From the IMG/VR virus record IMGVR_UViG_2740892212_000008: a stretch of 6,740 bases of DNA, one strand, 5' to 3'. Shown here piece after piece: positions 840 to 6,740 of this stretch. The translations under genes were made by a program, and so were the position numbers. The DNA is from a virus (Duplodnaviria; Heunggongvirae; Uroviricota; Caudoviricetes). Within the stretch, counting starts at the first letter, position 1, and each line of letters starts with the position of its first letter. The notes beneath the pieces are model-generated. The model made no database searches. It saw only the letters and a program-made list of their open reading frames with translations, and was not told where the DNA came from.

Positions 840-906
840 GCCCCAGTTAACATTACGCGTCCGGCAAGACGCTTAACATTAATCTGAGGCCATATCTATG
901 CTCTAC
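840..906 (-). ncRNA. putative Sok-like antisense RNA covering the mok translation-initiation region (boundaries approximate)
   Basis: Expected by analogy with hok/sok loci. A weak minus-strand promoter is present (-35 TTGCCT at plus 941-936, 17-nt spacer, -10 TAACCT at plus 918-913). No clean terminator was found, so this is speculative. Confidence 0.2.
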
Positions 907-1110
907 ACACGTAGGTTAGCCTCTTACGTGCCGAAAGGCAAGGAGAAGCAGGCTATGAAGCAGCAAAAGGCGATGCTTATCGCCCTGATCGTCATCTGTT
1001 TAACCGTCATTGTGACGGCACTGGTAACGAGGAAAGACCTCTGCGAGGTACGACTCCGAACCGGCCAGACGGAGGTCGCTGTCTTCACAGCTTACGAACC
1101 TGAGGAGTAA
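898..1110 (+). CDS. mok-like reading frame: in-frame 19-codon N-terminal extension of hok (70 codons)
   Basis: ATG 898 is in frame with hok and shares its stop, as in chromosomal mokC/hokC and mokB/hokB pairs. GAGG lies 10 nt upstream. Confidence 0.4.
   Translation: MLYTRRLASYVPKGKEKQAMKQQKAMLIALIVICLTVIVTALVTRKDLCEVRLRTGQTEVAVFTAYEPEE
955..1110 (+). CDS. hokD: Hok/Gef family type I toxin, 51 aa, HokD/RelF-like
   Basis: Translation MKQQKAMLIALIVICLTVIVTALVTRKDLCEVRLRTGQTEVAVFTAYEPEE is recognised as Hok/Gef family: one transmembrane segment and the conserved RKDLCEV...TGQTEVAVF core. Stop TAA 1108-1110. Confidence 0.9.
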   Translation: MKQQKAMLIALIVICLTVIVTALVTRKDLCEVRLRTGQTEVAVFTAYEPEE

Positions 1111-1159
1111 GAGACCAGGCGAGGGAGAAATCCCTCGCCACCTCTGATGAGTCAGGCAT

Positions 1160-1175
1160 CCTCAACGCACCCGCA
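1160..1175 (+). promoter_or_regulatory. 3' fbi-like element of hok mRNA, partner of 781-796
   Basis: Complementary to 781-796 (see above). Lies between a 9-bp stem/GAAA-loop hairpin (1118-1139) and the terminator. Confidence 0.5.
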
Positions 1176-1178
1176 CTT

Positions 1179-1205
1179 AACCCGCTTCGGCGGGTTTTGT
1201 TTTTT
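1179..1205 (+). terminator. rho-independent terminator at the end of the hok transcript
   Basis: Stem AACCCGC / GCGGGTT with TTCG loop, followed by TTTTGTTTTTT. Confidence 0.65.
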
Positions 1206-1463
1206 CCTGGCATTCTGGTTTACAATTCGCACGTCAGCCTNNNNNNNNNNNNNNNNNNNNNNNNNNNNNNNNNNNNNNNNNNNNNNNNNNNNNNNNNNNN
1301 NNNNNNNNNNNNNNNNNNNNNNNNNNNNNNNNNNNNACGCGGATACGAGATTAAGAAAGCCCTCAGCCTCGATTATCGTCACTGGATAATCTATGTCAGG
1401 CTCCCTTATTCCGAACGCCCACCGCGCCCATCCCGCACATACCAGCAACGGATCTGGAGGTAA
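1197..1463 (+). CDS. possible small ORF in the position of Qin-prophage rem, interrupted by the N run; start undetermined
   Basis: A frame ends at TAA 1461-1463, two nt before the preferred GTG start of the DUF968 gene. Only the last 42 codons are visible after the N run and their composition is not convincingly coding. Confidence 0.2.
   Translation: MFFPGILVYNSHVSXXXXXXXXXXXXXXXXXXXXXXXXXXXXXXXXXRGYEIKKALSLDYRHWIIYVRLPYSERPPRPSRTYQQRIWR
1241..1336. other. run of 96 N: unresolved or masked sequence
   Basis: Directly visible. Any ORF call crossing it is unverifiable. Confidence 0.95.
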
Positions 1464-1464
1464 C

Positions 1465-2514
1465 GTGCGGATATTACTTCGACCTGTTCTGGTACCGGAA
1501 CTCGGGCTTGTGGTCCTTAGGCCGGGCTGTGAATCCATGCAAGTATTTCATAACCCTCGAGTGCTGGTGGAGCCTGAACCGAAAAGCATGCGCGGTCTGC
1601 CGTCCGGAGTCGTCCCTGCCGTTCGCCAGCCGCTGGCGGAGGATAAATCATTACTGCCATTTTTCAGCGATGAGCGTGTGATTCGTGCTGCTGGCGGCGC
1701 TGGCGCACTGTCTGACTGGCTCCTGCGTCATGTTAAATCCTGCCAGTGGCCTCATGGAGACTATCACCACAGTGAAACCGTCATACATCGTTACGGTACC
1801 GGCGCAATGGTGTTGTGCTGGCACTGCGACAACCAGCTGCGCGACCAGACATCCGAATCACTCGGGCAGCTTGCTCAACAAAATCTGACAGCCTGGATGA
1901 TTGACGTCATACGTCACGCAATAAGTGGTGCACAGGAACGGGAATTATCGCTGGCTGAATTATCCTGGTGGGCGCTCTGCAATCAGGTAGCGGACGCACT
2001 ACCGGAGGCAGTATTACATCGTTCTCTGGGGTTACGCGCGGAAAAAATCCACTCAGTATACCGCGAGAGTGACATCATACCGGGAGAACAGACAGCCATC
2101 AGCATACTGAAGCAGCGCACAAAAAATTTTGCGCCGTTGCCTCACGCCCACCAGCAACAGAACCCACCACAGGAAAAGACGGTGGTCAGCATTGCCGTTG
2201 ATCCGGAGTCACCGGAATCATTCATGAAGCGGCCTAAACGTCGCCGCTGGGTGAATGAGAAATACACGCGCTGGGTAAAGACACAGCCGTGTACATGTTG
2301 TGGTAAGCCAGCAGACGATCCCCATCACCTGATTGGTCACGGTCAGGGCGGAATGGGGACAAAATCTCACGATATTTTCACGCTACCGCTGTGTCGGGAG
2401 CATCACAACGAGCTTCATGCGGATCCGCTGGCGTTCGAAGAAAAGCATGGTTCTCAGGTTGATTTAATTTTTCGTTTTCTTGATCACGCCTTTGCAACTG
2501 GCGTGCTTGGGTAA
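1465..2514 (+). CDS. DUF968-family prophage protein with HNH-like Cys/His motif (YdfU-like)
   Basis: C-terminal CTCCGKPADDPHHLIGHGQGG...LCREHHNELH is recognised as the DUF968 / His-Me-finger-like signature. A second Cys/His cluster (CQWPHGDYHH...CWHCDN) lies upstream. Preferred start is GTG 1465, 4 nt after GGAGG (349 aa); the upstream in-frame ATG 1393 (373 aa) is the alternative. Stop TAA 2512-2514. Confidence 0.7.
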   Translation: MRILLRPVLVPELGLVVLRPGCESMQVFHNPRVLVEPEPKSMRGLPSGVVPAVRQPLAEDKSLLPFFSDERVIRAAGGAGALSDWLLRHVKSCQWPHGDYHHSETVIHRYGTGAMVLCWHCDNQLRDQTSESLGQLAQQNLTAWMIDVIRHAISGAQERELSLAELSWWALCNQVADALPEAVLHRSLGLRAEKIHSVYRESDIIPGEQTAISILKQRTKNFAPLPHAHQQQNPPQEKTVVSIAVDPESPESFMKRPKRRRWVNEKYTRWVKTQPCTCCGKPADDPHHLIGHGQGGMGTKSHDIFTLPLCREHHNELHADPLAFEEKHGSQVDLIFRFLDHAFATGVLG

Positions 2515-2526
2515 AAGAGGTGACTG

Positions 2527-2886
2527 ATGCTCATAGATTTGGTTTTACCTTACCCGCCGACGGTGAACACTTACTGGCGACGCCGTGGCAGCACATATTT
2601 TATCTCGGAGGAGGGAAAGCGTTATCGCCGGGCTGTGGCGCTTATTGTTCGCCAGCAGCGGCTGAAATTAAGCCTGTCCGGAACGCTGGCGATAAAGGTG
2701 ATTGCAGAGCCATCGGATAAGCGTCGTCGCGACCTGGACAACATTCTGAAAGCACCGCTGGATGCGCTGACGCATGCGGGAGTGCTCATTGATGACGAGC
2801 AGTTTGATGAAATCAATATTGTACGTGGTCAGCCAGTATCTGGTGGACGGCTGGGTGTGAAGATTTACAAAATTGAGAGTGAGTGA
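2527..2886 (+). CDS. rusA: RusA-family Holliday junction resolvase
   Basis: 119 aa with the RusA hallmarks PYPPTVNTYW...RRRDLDNILKAPLDAL and a C-terminal GGRL segment. Strong SD GAGGTG 4 nt upstream of ATG 2527. Stop TGA 2884-2886. Confidence 0.9.
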   Translation: MLIDLVLPYPPTVNTYWRRRGSTYFISEEGKRYRRAVALIVRQQRLKLSLSGTLAIKVIAEPSDKRRRDLDNILKAPLDALTHAGVLIDDEQFDEINIVRGQPVSGGRLGVKIYKIESE

Positions 2887-2894
2887 GCGTAAAT

Positions 2895-3446
2895 ATGATA
2901 TATCCGGAAATTACAGGCAAAAGCGGCGAACATTTACGCCTGAACACGCTGGAAGCAGTCTGGATCCAGGGGAAATTACGGATGTGGGGGCGGTGGTCGT
3001 ATATCGGTGGGGGTAAATCCGGAAATATGTTTAACCGGTTACTGGTTTCGAAAAAGCTGACGAAAACAGCAGTTAATGAGGTTTTACGCAGAATGAAGAA
3101 ATCCGGGCTGGAAAAACCGGAACTTGAGGCATTTTTTCGGGATATGACAAGAGGAAAGCAGAAGAGCTGGTTGTCACATTGTACAGACACAGAGGCGTTG
3201 ATTATTGATCGCGTTATCAGTGAGGTGCTTGGGGAATATCCCGGGCTAATCAATGTTCTCCGGCAAAGGTACGAAGGACGGGGAATGAGCAAACTGAACA
3301 TGGCCGAAAGGTTAAATGCAGATCATCCTGATTGGTCGTTGGTTACGTGCAGACGCCGAATTGATCAATGGTTGGGGGTATCTGAATTTATGTTATATGC
3401 CCCCATGCGCATGGCTTTTGTTACAGAGAAAAATGTTGCAAACTGA
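2895..3446 (+). CDS. putative late-gene antiterminator Q
   Basis: Position is diagnostic: directly after rusA and directly before terminator structures and late-region cargo. 183 aa from ATG 2895; the in-frame GTG 2883 overlaps the rusA stop as an alternative start. Family assignment is from context and weak recall only. Confidence 0.6.
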   Translation: MIYPEITGKSGEHLRLNTLEAVWIQGKLRMWGRWSYIGGGKSGNMFNRLLVSKKLTKTAVNEVLRRMKKSGLEKPELEAFFRDMTRGKQKSWLSHCTDTEALIIDRVISEVLGEYPGLINVLRQRYEGRGMSKLNMAERLNADHPDWSLVTCRRRIDQWLGVSEFMLYAPMRMAFVTEKNVAN

Positions 3447-3547: not shown

Positions 3548-3670
3548 GTGTCCGCGATATACAGTAGCGCAATAAATTCGCTGGTGGTTATTAATACCGT
3601 TCTTTCAGCTTGCTGGCTTTTTCGACAAGAGTTATTGGTGTGTCACGTTAACCGGAAAAGGGAAAAAGAC

Positions 3671-3868
3671 ATGCTAAAACAGCAGGATATGACAGAAACC
3701 GCCAGAGTGGTGTTTAATGAATTAAGCGTTACCGAACCGGCGACAGTCGGGGAGATAGCGCAGAATACTTACCTTTCACGCGAACGCTGCCAGTTAATAC
3801 TGACCCAGCTGGTTATGGCGGGTCTGGCAGACTATCAGTTCGGTTGTTACAGACGCCTTCCGCAGTGA
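3671..3868 (+). CDS. small protein, 65 aa, winged-helix-like (PapI/FaeA-like pattern), putative DNA-binding regulator
   Basis: ATG 3671 with AAGGGA 7 nt upstream. The segment TVGEIAQNTYLSRERCQLILTQLVMAGL resembles a helix-turn-helix recognition region. The ORF-track version starts at GTG 3548, next to the terminator T-run, and is less likely. Confidence 0.5.
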   Translation: MLKQQDMTETARVVFNELSVTEPATVGEIAQNTYLSRERCQLILTQLVMAGLADYQFGCYRRLPQ

Positions 3869-4018: not shown

Positions 4019-5068
4019 ATGCTTAATACTGTAAAAATATCCAGTTGTGAGTTAATCAACGCCGACTGCCTGGAATTTATCCGGTCGTTACCCGAAAATT
4101 CTGTTGACCTGATAGTCACGGACCCGCCGTACTTTAAAGTGAAGCCTGAGGGCTGGGATAACCAGTGGAAGGGCGACGATGATTACCTGAAGTGGCTGGA
4201 CCAGTGTCTGGCGCAGTTCTGGCGGGTGCTGAAACCTGCCGGAAGTCTTTACCTGTTCTGTGGTCATCGCCTGGCATCTGATATCGAAATCATGATGCGT
4301 GAACGCTTCAGTGTGCTGAACCATATTATCTGGGCGAAGCCGTCCGGACGCTGGAACGGATGCAACAAGGAAAGCCTGCGGGCGTATTTCCCCGCCACAG
4401 AGCGCATTCTGTTCGCGGAACATTATCAGGGGCCGTATCGCCCGAAAGATGCCGGGTATGAGGCGAAGGGCAGGGAACTGAAACAGCATGTGATGGCCCA
4501 GCTGATTTCTTACTTTCGTGATGCACGCGCGGCCCTGGGGATAACGGCAAAACAGATTGCAGATGCCACAGGAAAGAAAAACATGGTGTCGCACTGGTTC
4601 AGTGCCAGTCAGTGGCAGCTACCGAACGAAAGCGATTATCTGAAATTACAGTCGCTGTTTGCCCGGGTGGCAGAAGAGAAACATCAGCGGGGAGAACTGG
4701 AAAAGTCCCATTACCAACTGGTCAGCACATACAGTGAGCTGAACCGGCAGTATATGGAACTGCTGAGTGAATATAAAAATTTGCGGAGGTATTTCGGTGT
4801 GACGGTGCAGGTGCCGTACACCGATGTGTGGACGTATAAACCGGTGCAGTACTATCCAGGGAAACATCCGTGCGAAAAACCGGCAGAAATGCTGCAGCAG
4901 ATAATCAGCGCAAGTAGTCGTCCTGGTGATCTGGTTGCGGATTTTTTCATGGGGTCGGGTTCAACGGTAAAAGCGGCGATGGCACTGGGGCGTCGTGCGA
5001 TTGGTGTTGAGCTGGAGACCGGACGTTTTGAGCAGACAGTCAGGGAAGTTCAGGATTTAATCGTTTGA
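4019..5068 (+). CDS. DNA methyltransferase, beta-class amino-MTase (probably N6-adenine), orphan
   Basis: 349 aa with catalytic motif IV DPPY near the N-terminus (SVDLIVTDPPYF) and SAM-binding motif I near the C-terminus (DLVADFFMGSGST). This order is the beta-class arrangement. No restriction-endonuclease-like ORF is adjacent. Confidence 0.9.
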   Translation: MLNTVKISSCELINADCLEFIRSLPENSVDLIVTDPPYFKVKPEGWDNQWKGDDDYLKWLDQCLAQFWRVLKPAGSLYLFCGHRLASDIEIMMRERFSVLNHIIWAKPSGRWNGCNKESLRAYFPATERILFAEHYQGPYRPKDAGYEAKGRELKQHVMAQLISYFRDARAALGITAKQIADATGKKNMVSHWFSASQWQLPNESDYLKLQSLFARVAEEKHQRGELEKSHYQLVSTYSELNRQYMELLSEYKNLRRYFGVTVQVPYTDVWTYKPVQYYPGKHPCEKPAEMLQQIISASSRPGDLVADFFMGSGSTVKAAMALGRRAIGVELETGRFEQTVREVQDLIV

Positions 5069-5117: not shown

Positions 5118-5193
5118 GGCCCTTTAGCTCAGTGGTGAGAGCGAGCGACTCATAATCGCCAGGTCGCTGGTTCAAATCCAGCAAGGGCCACCA
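5118..5193 (+). tRNA. ileZ: tRNA-Ile2 (anticodon CAU, lysidine type), phage-encoded
   Basis: 76 nt with canonical cloverleaf: acceptor GGCCCUU/AAGGGCC, anticodon loop CUCAUAA, T-loop UUCAAAU, 3' ACCA. Very close to E. coli tRNA-Ile2. Confidence 0.85.
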
Positions 5194-5200
5194 TCACATA

Positions 5201-5277
5201 CCGCCATTATCTCATCAGGAAAGAGCGCCAGCCTTCGAAGCTGGTTGCGCGGAGTTCGGGTCCCCGAAGGCGGTCCA
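5201..5277 (+). tRNA. tRNA-Arg-like (anticodon UCG), possibly degenerate (argN position)
   Basis: Anticodon stem-loop CCAGC-CUUCGAA-GCUGG and a D-loop with A14 and GG are present. Acceptor stem has one mismatch, T-stem one mismatch, and T-loop is UUCGGGU (G where A58 is expected). Confidence 0.45.
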
Positions 5278-5290
5278 TTATCTGTATCCT

Positions 5291-5367
5291 GCGTTGTTAG
5301 CTCAGCCGGACAGAGCAATTGCCTTCTAAGCAATCGGTCACTGGTTCGAATCCAGTACAACGCGCCA
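5291..5367 (+). tRNA. argO: tRNA-Arg (anticodon UCU), phage-encoded
   Basis: 77 nt with canonical cloverleaf: acceptor GCGUUGU/ACAACGC, anticodon loop CUUCUAA, T-loop UUCGAAU, 3' GCCA. Confidence 0.85.
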
Positions 5368-5381
5368 CACTTATTTTCCCT

Positions 5382-5407
5382 GGCTCGCTTTTGCGGGCCT
5401 TTTTTTT
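5382..5407 (+). terminator. rho-independent terminator after the tRNA cluster
   Basis: Stem GGCTCGC / GCGGGCC (7 bp, one G-U) with TTTT loop, followed by eight T (5400-5407). Confidence 0.7.
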
Positions 5408-5604
5408 AAATGTCTCACAATTCAGACGGTTGACAGTTGTCTGTTTTGCGGGGAGTTTGTTAAAAGAAACTGGCATGGTGAATCCCCCTGTGCGGAGGGG
5501 CAATCAGCGAGTAGGTATATGGGATAATCGTGGATTCAGGTGCTGGTACTGAATTCACCGGGAGGCACCCGGCACCATGCAATGGCACATAGCGCCACTC
5601 TCCA

Positions 5605-5628
5605 GCCCCTCTCCGGAGGGGCTTTCTT
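5605..5628 (+). terminator. terminator-like hairpin, plus strand
   Basis: Stem GCCCCTC / GAGGGGC with TCCG loop, followed by TTTCTTAT. Confidence 0.4.
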
Positions 5629-5634
5629 ATGGAC

Positions 5635-5663
5635 AAAAAAAGCCCGCGCAGGGAGACGCGGGC
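5635..5663 (-). terminator. rho-independent terminator, minus strand
   Basis: Plus-strand A7 (5635-5641) then stem GCCCGCG / CGCGGGC with 8-nt loop. Read on the minus strand this is a GC stem followed by seven U. Confidence 0.5.
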
Positions 5664-5704
5664 GGCAAGGAATAAACAACAAAACGTGAAGTAATATTTC
5701 AGCT
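5635..5704 (-). ncRNA. candidate ~70-nt small RNA, minus strand (hypothetical)
   Basis: Minus-strand promoter-like element: -35 TTGCGC (plus 5739-5734), 18-nt spacer, -10 TATTAT (plus 5715-5710). The transcript would carry a GU-rich stretch (GUUUUGUUGUUUAUUCC) and end at the minus-strand terminator. No coding potential. Confidence 0.2.
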
Positions 5705-5856
5705 GGCGAATAATATCCGACAGTAATCACTCTGCGCAATAGCGCGGCCTTTTTCGTATTGCGGGCTGTTGTCTCTCTTCTGCCATTGTCCTGTAACTTC
5801 CGGACTTCAGCCCGCTCCTCATTTTACTCACAATATTATCCCGGCCGGGAGGATTC

Positions 5857-6740
5857 ATGGCATTTAAACACTATGATGTTGTCAGGGCGGCGTCGCCGTC
5901 AGACCTTGCGGAAAAGCTGACACACAAACTGAAAGAGGGCTGGCAGCCATACGGCGGACCGGTTGCCATTACGCCGTACACACTGATGCAGGCGGTGGCT
6001 ATTGAAGGAGAGCCACAGGTCGGCCCTTCATCTGAGCCGGATTGGTACTACGTCATCGTACTGGCCGGGCAGTCCAATGCCATGGCTTACGGTGAAGGGC
6101 TTCCGCTGCCGGATTCATACGATGCTCCGGATCCGCGCATTAAACAGCTGGCGCGCCGCAGTACAGTGACGCCGGGCGGGGCTGCCTGCAGATATAACGA
6201 TATTATTCCGGCTGACCACTGTCTGCATGATGTGCAGGATATGAGTACGCTGAATCATCCGAGGGCTGACCTGAGCAAAGGGCAGTACGGCTGTGTCGGT
6301 CAGGGTTTACATATTGCCAAAAAACTGCTCCCGTATATCCCGAATAACGCGGGGATCCTGCTGGTACCATGCTGTCGTGGTGGTTCGGCATTTACCCAGG
6401 GCGCGGAGGGGACATTCAGCGAGTCCACGGGGGCCAGTCAGGATTCGGCACGCTGGGGGGTGGGCAAGCCGTTATATCAGGATCTGATTTCCCGCACAAA
6501 AGCGGCATTGCAGAAAAATCCCAAAAACGTTCTGCTGGCCGTCTGCTGGATGCAGGGTGAGTTTGACATGAGCGCCGCCACCCACGCACAGCAACCTGCG
6601 CTGTTTACAGCCATGCTGACACAGTTTCGTGCTGACCTCTCCGTGTTTAACGCGCAGTGCCATGGTGGCAGTGCTGCAGATGTGCCGTGGGTTTGTGGTG
6701 ACACGACGTATTACTGGAAAAATACATACGCTACCCAGTA
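5857..6740 (+). CDS. nanS: prophage sialate O-acetylesterase (NanS-p type) with N-terminal DUF1737-like region; 3' end beyond the window
   Basis: ATG 5857 with GGGAGG 4 nt upstream. Frame is open to the window end (294 codons, verified by hand; absent from the ORF track because it lacks a stop). Contains the SGNH/SASA nucleophile block VIVLAGQSNAMAYG. Confidence 0.85.
   Translation, partial: MAFKHYDVVRAASPSDLAEKLTHKLKEGWQPYGGPVAITPYTLMQAVAIEGEPQVGPSSEPDWYYVIVLAGQSNAMAYGEGLPLPDSYDAPDPRIKQLARRSTVTPGGAACRYNDIIPADHCLHDVQDMSTLNHPRADLSKGQYGCVGQGLHIAKKLLPYIPNNAGILLVPCCRGGSAFTQGAEGTFSESTGASQDSARWGVGKPLYQDLISRTKAALQKNPKNVLLAVCWMQGEFDMSAATHAQQPALFTAMLTQFRADLSVFNAQCHGGSAADVPWVCGDTTYYWKNTYATQ

Follow-up and report, generated by a model that had tools for sequence, protein, structure and literature searches.

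The relatives of the protein described here have been classified and annotated more than once. A published classification of the His-Me superfamily assigns DUF968 and DUF1364/YbcO to one group, group 7, names YdfU and notes RusA and Q as neighbours (Jablonska 2017, PMC5714182), and the C-terminus of DUF968 has been described as a zinc-finger HNH motif (Curtis 2014, PMC4118853). Many RefSeq phage records carry the label ‘HNH endonuclease’, as does PHROG 96, and the HNH assignment of the DUF968 C-terminus is therefore already known from both publication and annotation. Nevertheless, ydfU of Escherichia coli K-12 is still listed as ‘Uncharacterized’ (PMC11551758), in agreement with an earlier reading of this locus, made from its sequence alone, that considered the family to be without a defined function. 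Our search of the literature found neither a published nuclease assay of any DUF968 or DUF1364 member nor any biochemistry of YbcO. To this picture we add what is modestly new: a probable zinc site and an apparently novel fold in the N-terminal domain, a settled translation start, and a link to the P1 protein PdcB with its lost catalytic residues.

We analysed a stretch of 6,740 nucleotides of phage DNA, referred to here as the window, in which all features described below lie on the + strand. Frame +1 is open over 1393..2514 with its stop codon at 2512-2514 (ORF list), and the coding sequence at 1465..2514, identified from the ORF list, PGAP, Pfam and PHROG, specifies 349 amino acids plus the stop. 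This sub-ORF, running from GTG 1465 to the stop, is exactly the CDS that PGAP calls in records of 100% identity, in one of which positions 5126..6175 (with PGAP annotation) correspond to window positions 1465..2514. The encoded protein is identical to RefSeq WP_024173616.1, a “DUF968 domain-containing protein”. It scores 252.6 bits against Pfam DUF968 (PF06147), for which the gathering cut-off is 27.8, with profile positions 1-171 falling on residues 160-346 of the 349, and it matches PHROG 96 (‘HNH endonuclease’) from end to end (E=4.5e-172, profile positions 1-333 of 334). The PGAP call and the Pfam score thus bear out the sequence-only reading of a DUF968 protein at 1465-2514. Window positions 1340-2600 are 100% identical to several E. 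coli chromosomes, that of O55:H7 DEC5B among them; of 5426 complete E. coli genomes, 4536 (about 84%) contain related copies, at up to nine places in a single genome, and a tblastn search found the protein in 175 phage records. There is nothing unusual about this copy of YdfU/DUF968, a prophage protein of wide distribution.

The choice of start codon had previously been left ambiguous between GTG 1465 and ATG 1393, and can now be settled in favour of the former. The translation start region (1456..1467, + strand) consists of a GGAGG Shine-Dalgarno sequence at 1456-1460, the TAA of the upstream ORF at 1461-1463 and the GTG at 1465-1467, such that GGAGG sits 4 nt before GTG 1465. The position of the upstream stop, together with GGAGG beside the GTG, suggests that translation from GTG 1465 is coupled to that of the upstream 90-aa ORF. 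Position 1 of the PHROG 96 profile is the residue encoded by GTG 1465, and in the homologues examined, which came from phages of Klebsiella, Edwardsiella, Vibrio and Shigella and from P7, an ATG or GTG without exception occupies the aligned start behind a Shine-Dalgarno-like sequence. In most relatives a stop codon interrupts the in-frame stretch 5' of that start within 1-10 codons, and otherwise the stretch holds no start codon; HannyBb has no counterpart of ATG 1393. Taken together, the ribosome-binding signal with its adjoining upstream stop, the profile start, the conserved ATG or GTG and an upstream stretch that is closed or startless identify GTG 1465 as the start, and ATG 1393 is rejected. 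The internal ATG 1537, preferred by some phage annotators, is ruled out as well, since the first 24 residues read from GTG 1465 show conservation (M1, G14) and AlphaFold2 models them as beta-strands with a pLDDT of 86-94.

The protein contains two Cys/His clusters, both present in the sequence as the sequence-only reading had written them and lying 153-183 residues apart, for which its figure of about 150 residues was fair. A first homologue search returned copies of at least 79% identity only, which were uninformative on conservation; divergent homologues were instead obtained from an exhaustive search of 1.84 billion representative proteins with the N-terminal domain. Among homologues sharing 25-55% identity, each key position of both clusters is either invariant or restricted to exchanges between Cys and His, a degree of conservation beyond chance.

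The C-terminal cluster lies within a His-Me finger (HNH) domain encoded at 2215..2511 (+ strand), which covers positions 71-171 of the Pfam DUF968 model and is composed of a basic N-terminal helix (PK..RW..Y..WVK), the Cys/His motif and C-terminal helices. The motif itself (C276-H318, 2290..2418, + strand) reads C276-TCC...DPHH288...D303...C310-REHH-NELH318, with C276, C279, C310 and H313 as predicted zinc ligands and H287, H288, D303, H314 and H318 as the predicted catalytic set. Its conservation was assessed in 26 divergent homologues that possess the C-terminal domain (25-55% identity). Among the ligand positions, C276 is found in all 26, C279 and C310 in 24 each, and position 313 holds Cys 14 times and His 10 times; D303 is likewise found in 26 of 26, P308 is invariant, and H287, H288, H314 and H318 are each retained in 23. 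The H-N-H pattern proposed from the sequence is consequently upheld for its histidines (23/26) but not for its asparagine: position 315, the Asn in the motif of the window protein, varies between D, N and R, and the invariant residue of that region is D303.

A full-length AlphaFold2 model, built on a 40-sequence alignment (mean pLDDT 84), places DPHH on a strand (285-288), TLPL on a second strand (306-309) and C-x2-H-H-x3-H on a helix (311-319), with pLDDT values of 94-97 across these elements. A hairpin followed by a helix is thus predicted where the HNH hypothesis requires one, and residues 276-318 are predicted, from this modelled secondary structure, to adopt a beta-beta-alpha-metal arrangement. 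Comparison of the C-terminal domain by hhalign gave a probability of 75% against the single sequence of YbcO (PDB 3g27) and of 91.4% (E=8.9e-7, 63 columns) against a 23-member DUF1364/YbcO profile, the alignment being in register at the catalytic His, the G-x-G-T-K...D loop and C-x2-C-H. Sub-threshold Pfam matches to HNHc_6 and RecA_dep_nuc, and matches to several HNH PHROGs, fall over the same C-terminal residues. When the whole two-domain model was compared with the PDB by Foldseek, HNH proteins took ranks 1, 2 and 4-7, although with E-values of 0.77-3.3, none of them significant; the top ranks comprised the I-E HNH Cascade (8yb6), Gme HNH 4h9d (with the best TMt, 0.47), Cap5, IscB and ScoMcrA, and 3g27 was absent from the list for the whole model. 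A single-sequence phmmer search of the PDB yielded no HNH homologue, and sequence searches of the PDB with the whole protein, with each half and with an N-domain profile yielded chance matches to C2H2 zinc fingers and one marginal alignment to the HNH of IscB. The conserved catalytic and zinc-binding positions, the predicted beta-beta-alpha arrangement and the profile homology to YbcO/3g27 support the C-terminal domain as a genuine His-Me finger (HNH) domain, and the suggestion that the last ~90 residues resemble such a nuclease gains substance from the retention of the histidines and from the match to the YbcO profile.

With moderate confidence we favour a model in which the protein is a two-module phage accessory enzyme, whose zinc-braced His-Me finger would cut or nick DNA, whose N-terminal domain would provide recognition, and which would act as a dispensable helper in recombination or replication. 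In the C-terminal module, a CCCH zinc site (C276, C279, C310 and H313) would brace the beta-hairpin and helix, the general base would be H288, where strand 1 ends, a catalytic divalent metal would be held by D303, H314 and H318, and DNA would be contacted by the basic helix that precedes the motif. Most likely, the protein would nick or cleave DNA in a metal-dependent manner, probably with selectivity for structure. The N-terminal 190 residues would form a separate, family-specific domain with a structural zinc, most likely concerned with recognition of a substrate or partner and not an active site, and a flexible linker would connect the two modules. We regard zinc binding and nuclease activity as rather probable; a role in recombination, which the sequence-only reading had raised for a nuclease beside a junction resolvase, is put forward tentatively.

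The position of the gene bears upon when such an enzyme might act. The window is part of a lambdoid prophage late-regulatory region. It opens with an ORF at 10-663 to which no function is assigned (PHROG 60), followed by a hokD/sok type I toxin-antitoxin locus (sok at 785-960 by Rfam, with the Hok ORF ending at 1110) and the 90-aa ORF (1191..1463; PHROG 1212), which is a PGAP CDS in an identical record, ends one base before the GTG and is interrupted within the window by a run of 96 N (1241-1336). Downstream by 13 nt lies rusA, encoding a Holliday junction resolvase (2527..2886; Pfam RusA E=3.5e-16; PGAP), whose stop is overlapped by a DUF1133/Q-like antiterminator gene (2883..3446; DUF1133 E=8.5e-105, Phage_antitermQ E=3.9e-7). 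A small ORF, an N6/N4 DNA methyltransferase gene (4019-5068), three tRNAs (5118-5367) and the sRNA STnc100 (5444-5634) follow, all of these features being on the + strand. The proposal that the family resides next to rusA and Q is accordingly correct for the window, and it extends to other phages: in SfV, KpF5, HannyBb, EPP-1 and the P0218 contigs, as in the window, the gene stands at the end of the early-right block with the late activator directly or almost directly downstream, and this position, with RusA and either Q or Lpa as neighbours, recurs in phages of E. coli, Shigella, Klebsiella and Edwardsiella as well as in P7. Across the phages examined, RusA is close by on either side or absent, and it is not adjacent in HannyBb, P7 or the Vibrio phage Len, so the protein need not have the resolvase as a functional partner. 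Between the window and P7 (fdc), no homology was found for the small ORFs upstream of the gene. The location on the same strand immediately upstream of rusA and Q suggests that the gene would belong with them to a delayed-early (nin-like) transcription unit, in which case the protein would be made during phage DNA replication and recombination.

The same location invites a different explanation, namely that the conserved role of the family is non-catalytic, with the protein serving at the early-to-late switch as a zinc-stabilised factor that binds DNA or protein and might, for instance, modulate how the late activator encoded just downstream (Q for lambdoid phages, Lpa for P1/P7) is expressed or acts, and with the HNH chemistry of lambdoid members being secondary or vestigial. 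The P1/P7 clade is instructive here. P1 PdcB and its P7 counterpart Upf95.7 are full-length homologues of the window protein (the P7 protein matches PHROG 96 at E=1e-128 and DUF968 at E=5e-50), and the gene sits between phd-doc-fdc and lpa, that is, downstream of a toxin-antitoxin module and immediately upstream of a late-gene activator. PdcB and its relatives P0190, P0224 and P0260 have kept the overall architecture and both sets of zinc ligands, those of the N-terminal domain and a Cys4 set in the C-terminal domain, and have lost the four catalytic histidines, with H287, H288, H314 and H318 all replaced. PdcB is, judged by these substitutions, probably nuclease-dead, and the function that is conserved in this clade, at least, cannot be HNH catalysis. 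The placement of a DUF968 gene directly before the late activator in phages that differ widely, and the annotation of an Arsenophonus member as a ‘phage transcriptional regulator’ (as cited in PMC5714182), would fit a regulatory role. Lambdoid members, however, show clear constraint on the catalytic residues (23/26 across 25-50% identity), a pattern that speaks for genuine catalysis in that clade; proximity to Q could be no more than a sign of where the early operon ends; and PdcB proved to be non-essential both by CRISPRi and by insertion (PMC10695390, PMC10067587), the knock-down giving no plaque phenotype. On balance we consider a purely non-catalytic role unlikely and retain the two-module enzyme as our preferred model.

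The N-terminal domain merits separate consideration. It spans residues 1-190 (1465..2034, + strand) and is modelled by AlphaFold2 as an alpha/beta domain with an embedded beta-hairpin plus helix; modelled in isolation, it has a pLDDT of 91.2 and a pTM of 0.73. Because the Pfam DUF968 model begins at residue 160, residues 1-159 belong to no Pfam family, and indeed no Pfam family matched the N-terminal domain in any of 35 members. Foldseek comparison of the isolated domain found no relative in the PDB or BFVD (PDB TM-scores of 0.25 or below, all E > 0.1), nor did sequence and profile searches of the PDB. The family is small, numbering 175 representatives at E<=1e-3 among the 1.84 billion proteins of the exhaustive search, and its carriers, both phage records and contigs, are associated with Enterobacterales and Vibrio hosts; the domain also occurs alone, as PHROG 11007. 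It is followed by a linker (residues 191-250; 2035..2214, + strand) predicted with low confidence (pLDDT 44-70, with segment 223-240 below 50), in which the alignment shows conservation of a short stretch, [KR]-E-[SA]-D-[IL]-x-P, around residues 203-210. An Orf/NinB-like identity for the N-terminal domain (PF05772, PDB 1PC6) was rejected, as no Pfam match was obtained with the protein, with its segments or with the 35 members, and 1PC6 was absent from the Foldseek lists. Apparent fusions of the N-terminal domain to capsid, portal, tail-fibre and tip-J fragments were set aside as clues, being confined to one lineage and representing deletion or assembly chimeras, and 607-aa ORFs joining DUF968 to Q were not accepted as evidence of domain partnership since they look like read-through of adjacent genes. 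It is tempting to speculate that the N-terminal domain is a previously undescribed zinc-binding fold carrying a nuclease-independent function at the early-to-late switch that has been kept from lambdoid phages to P1/P7. This would build on the retention of the modelled domain by P1-like members that lose the catalytic histidines and on the placement of the gene upstream of a late activator, whether Q or Lpa; we nevertheless hold it to be quite unlikely.

The upstream Cys/His cluster is carried by this domain (C93-N123; 1741..1833, + strand), where it reads C93-QWPHGDYHH...C118-WHC-DN123. In 40 family sequences, C93, Q94 and C118 are each present in all 40, D122 in 37 and N123 in 32, whereas position 101 is His in 29 and Cys in 10, and position 121 is Cys in 22 and His in 18. 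A Cys at 101 is always paired with a His at 121, and the ligand combination at 93/101/118/121 is CHCC in 21 sequences, CCCH in 10 and CHCH in 8, accounting for 39 of the 40. The remaining histidines (H97, H102, H108 and H120) vary freely, position 108 being His in only 9 of the 40. In the AlphaFold2 model the cluster lies on hairpin strands 105-110 and 113-118 and the start of helix 119-125, in a treble-clef-like disposition. As the four ligand positions admit Cys or His only and the other histidines are not conserved, the upstream cluster is probably a structural zinc site of C3H/C2H2 type (C93, H101, C118 and C121) and not a second nuclease site, on the evidence of these alignments. The suspicion that it might be a His-rich cluster of the catalytic type, as its sequence in the window seemed to suggest, is thus not supported: the one conserved His position, 101, alternates with Cys, and no similarity of the cluster to HNH proteins or to any known fold emerged from hhalign, from Pfam (35 members) or from Foldseek (PDB and BFVD).

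A subtler version of that idea traces the N-terminal cluster to a YbcO-like (DUF1364) module that has become a degenerate second His-Me finger, so that the protein would be a tandem HNH protein with one dead copy. The cluster is predicted to form a hairpin followed by a helix, and two of its ligands fall where strand meets helix, an arrangement shared with zinc-braced HNH domains; C93-Q94-x6-[H/C]101 has the spacing and the Cys-Gln of C13-Q14-x6-C21 in YbcO, and C118-x2-[C/H]121-D-N parallels C54-x2-C57-H-D. Exactly these residues are paired by hhalign, although without significance, the probabilities of the N-terminal cluster against the C-terminal domain and the YbcO profile being 0.1-1%. 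Comparison by hhalign with the single YbcO sequence was likewise not significant, BLASTP returned nothing, no HNH or DUF1364 Pfam match was found in the 35 members at E<=1, Foldseek of the isolated N-terminal domain did not raise HNH proteins above noise, and the variable position 108 is the very one at which a general base would be expected. A degenerate finger is therefore very unlikely, and a family-specific domain with a structural zinc remains our preferred reading.

The least probable of the explanations weighed here, and one to which we attach very little weight, is a conflict nuclease (for superinfection exclusion, anti-defence or an addiction-like role) borne as a moron near toxin-antitoxin and methyltransferase genes, since the features in its favour, namely a toxin-antitoxin module directly upstream (hokD/sok in the window, phd-doc in P7), DNA methyltransferases nearby in the window, SfV, KpF5 and the P0218 contigs, the frequency of HNH domains among defence effectors (with Cap5 and Cascade-HNH among the weak Foldseek matches) and a strong Rho-dependent terminator reported ahead of ydfU in Qin in a discussion of how toxic prophage genes are silenced (PMC9160355), are countered by the location of the gene in the core early operon of many unrelated phages and not in a variable moron slot, and by the frequency of toxin-antitoxin and methylase genes in nin regions regardless.

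The window gene in itself matters little, being one more copy of a family that publications and annotation resources already recognise as HNH. The practical value of the analysis lies in having fixed the start and in telling the His-Me domain apart from an N-terminal, probably zinc-binding module that Pfam does not model. Furthermore, nature supplies variants that are ‘catalytic-dead’ (P1 PdcB) or ‘zinc-less’, the latter represented by a Vibrio-type clade in which three C-domain zinc ligands are lost and the catalytic set is kept; these provide a set of constructs for a first biochemical test of this y-ome family.

Among known systems, DUF968 proteins of Gram-positive phages, such as Orf20 of the Staphylococcus aureus phage phiETA, have the C-terminal zinc-finger HNH region in common with the window protein, but are reported to carry an N-terminal domain like that of lambda Orf/NinB (PMC4118853), for which the window protein gives no signal by Pfam or Foldseek. 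Its N-terminal domain is its own, restricted to enterobacterial and Vibrio proteins. Lambda Rap (NinG) fills a comparable slot, immediately ahead of Q in the nin region, and is dispensable, although the analogy is functional only: the window protein has no NinG Pfam match and differs from Rap in length and architecture. Rap is regarded as an HNH-type nuclease that acts on D-loops and junctions, and its endonuclease activity on branched DNA has been demonstrated, whereas that of DUF968 is predicted.

YbcO, from prophage DLP12/82 (DUF1364, PF07102; 3g27), has a homologous His-Me core followed by C-terminal helices, as the profile alignment indicates, and shares with the window protein the G-x-G-T-K...D loop and the C-x2-C-H on the helix. 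It is also found beside rusA and Q in lambdoid prophages (PMC5714182). In contrast to the window protein, YbcO is a single domain of 96 residues in which the first pair of ligands is spaced C-x7-C instead of C-x2-C, and it lacks both the 190-aa N-terminal zinc domain and the linker. The closest counterpart is YdfU of the Qin prophage of E. coli K-12, a member of the same family with the same full-length architecture; phage records annotated ydfU share 87% DNA identity with the window gene. Even so, the window protein has His (H313) as the fourth zinc ligand of its C-terminal domain, where 14 of the 26 relatives have Cys. The order hokD, small ORF, ydfU and Q is common to both neighbourhoods, and nothing essential differs between YdfU and the window protein, the window copy having rusA between the DUF968 gene and Q.

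The DUF968 gene (window 1465-2514) lies in a lambdoid prophage block. Directly 5' of it and of the 90-aa ORF that precedes it (1191-1463) are the type I toxin-antitoxin locus hokD/sok, which is complete (785-1110) and recognized by an Rfam sok match of 117 bits and a Pfam Hok/Gef match, and, after this locus, a terminator-like hairpin (1179-1196). The 90-aa ORF is annotated by PGAP as hypothetical protein WP_032175188.1 and belongs to PHROG 1212, of unknown function. It contains a 96-nt run of Ns (1241-1336), the bases of which are legible in an identical record (L001, 4902-4997), where the ORF simply runs on.

Further downstream, in the gap that separates the Q-like gene from the methylase, a 106-aa ORF (3548-3868) matches PHROG 331, also of unknown function (E=5.9e-45); at this place PGAP gives only a shorter CDS of 65 aa in a related record. 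A tRNA cluster followed by the sRNA STnc100 (137.7 bits) occupies 5118-5634, its tRNAs being one with a CAT anticodon, assigned by PGAP as tRNA-Ile, together with Arg-TCG and Arg-TCT. Such a cluster with STnc100, 3' of Q and a methylase, is a typical arrangement in Stx-type lambdoid prophages.

Within the protein itself, the short [KR]-E-[SA]-D-[IL]-x-P motif (aa 203-210; window ~2071-2094) is kept in divergent homologues despite lying in a linker that is otherwise variable and of low confidence; it might serve in docking or packing. Some database proteins join the N-terminal domain to capsid, portal, tail-fibre or tip-J fragments, and others, of 607 aa, join the whole DUF968 protein to antiterminator Q (listed jointly as P0134-P0145, P0161 and P0038-P0040). 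Rather than genuine architectures, these fusions appear to be chimeras arising from prophage decay or assembly, and read-through from one gene into its neighbour.

The family extends to phages P1 and P7, whose PdcB (Upf95.7) is a YdfU family member over its full length, and a common gene order is found there and in the lambdoid prophages: a toxin-antitoxin module, a small ORF, YdfU/PdcB and a late-gene activator. This order reads hokD, 90-aa ORF, DUF968, rusA and Q in the window (898-3446) and phd-doc, fdc, pdcB and lpa in P7 (L008, 1688-4085). The two small ORFs are unrelated, BLASTP between them giving no alignment. PdcB carries other residues in place of the HNH motif's four catalytic histidines and retains both zinc-ligand sets (P7 copy, L008 2501-3544; homologues P0190, P0224 and P0260); judged from sequence, it is probably a naturally occurring catalytic-dead variant. 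It has been reported to be non-essential (PMC10695390, PMC10067587). A Vibrio-type clade (Vibrio phage Len, L011 2495-3502; P0217 and P0225) shows the reverse of the P1 pattern: it retains the H-H-D-H-H catalytic set but lacks C279, C310 and the ligand at position 313, three of the four that bind zinc in the predicted C-domain site.
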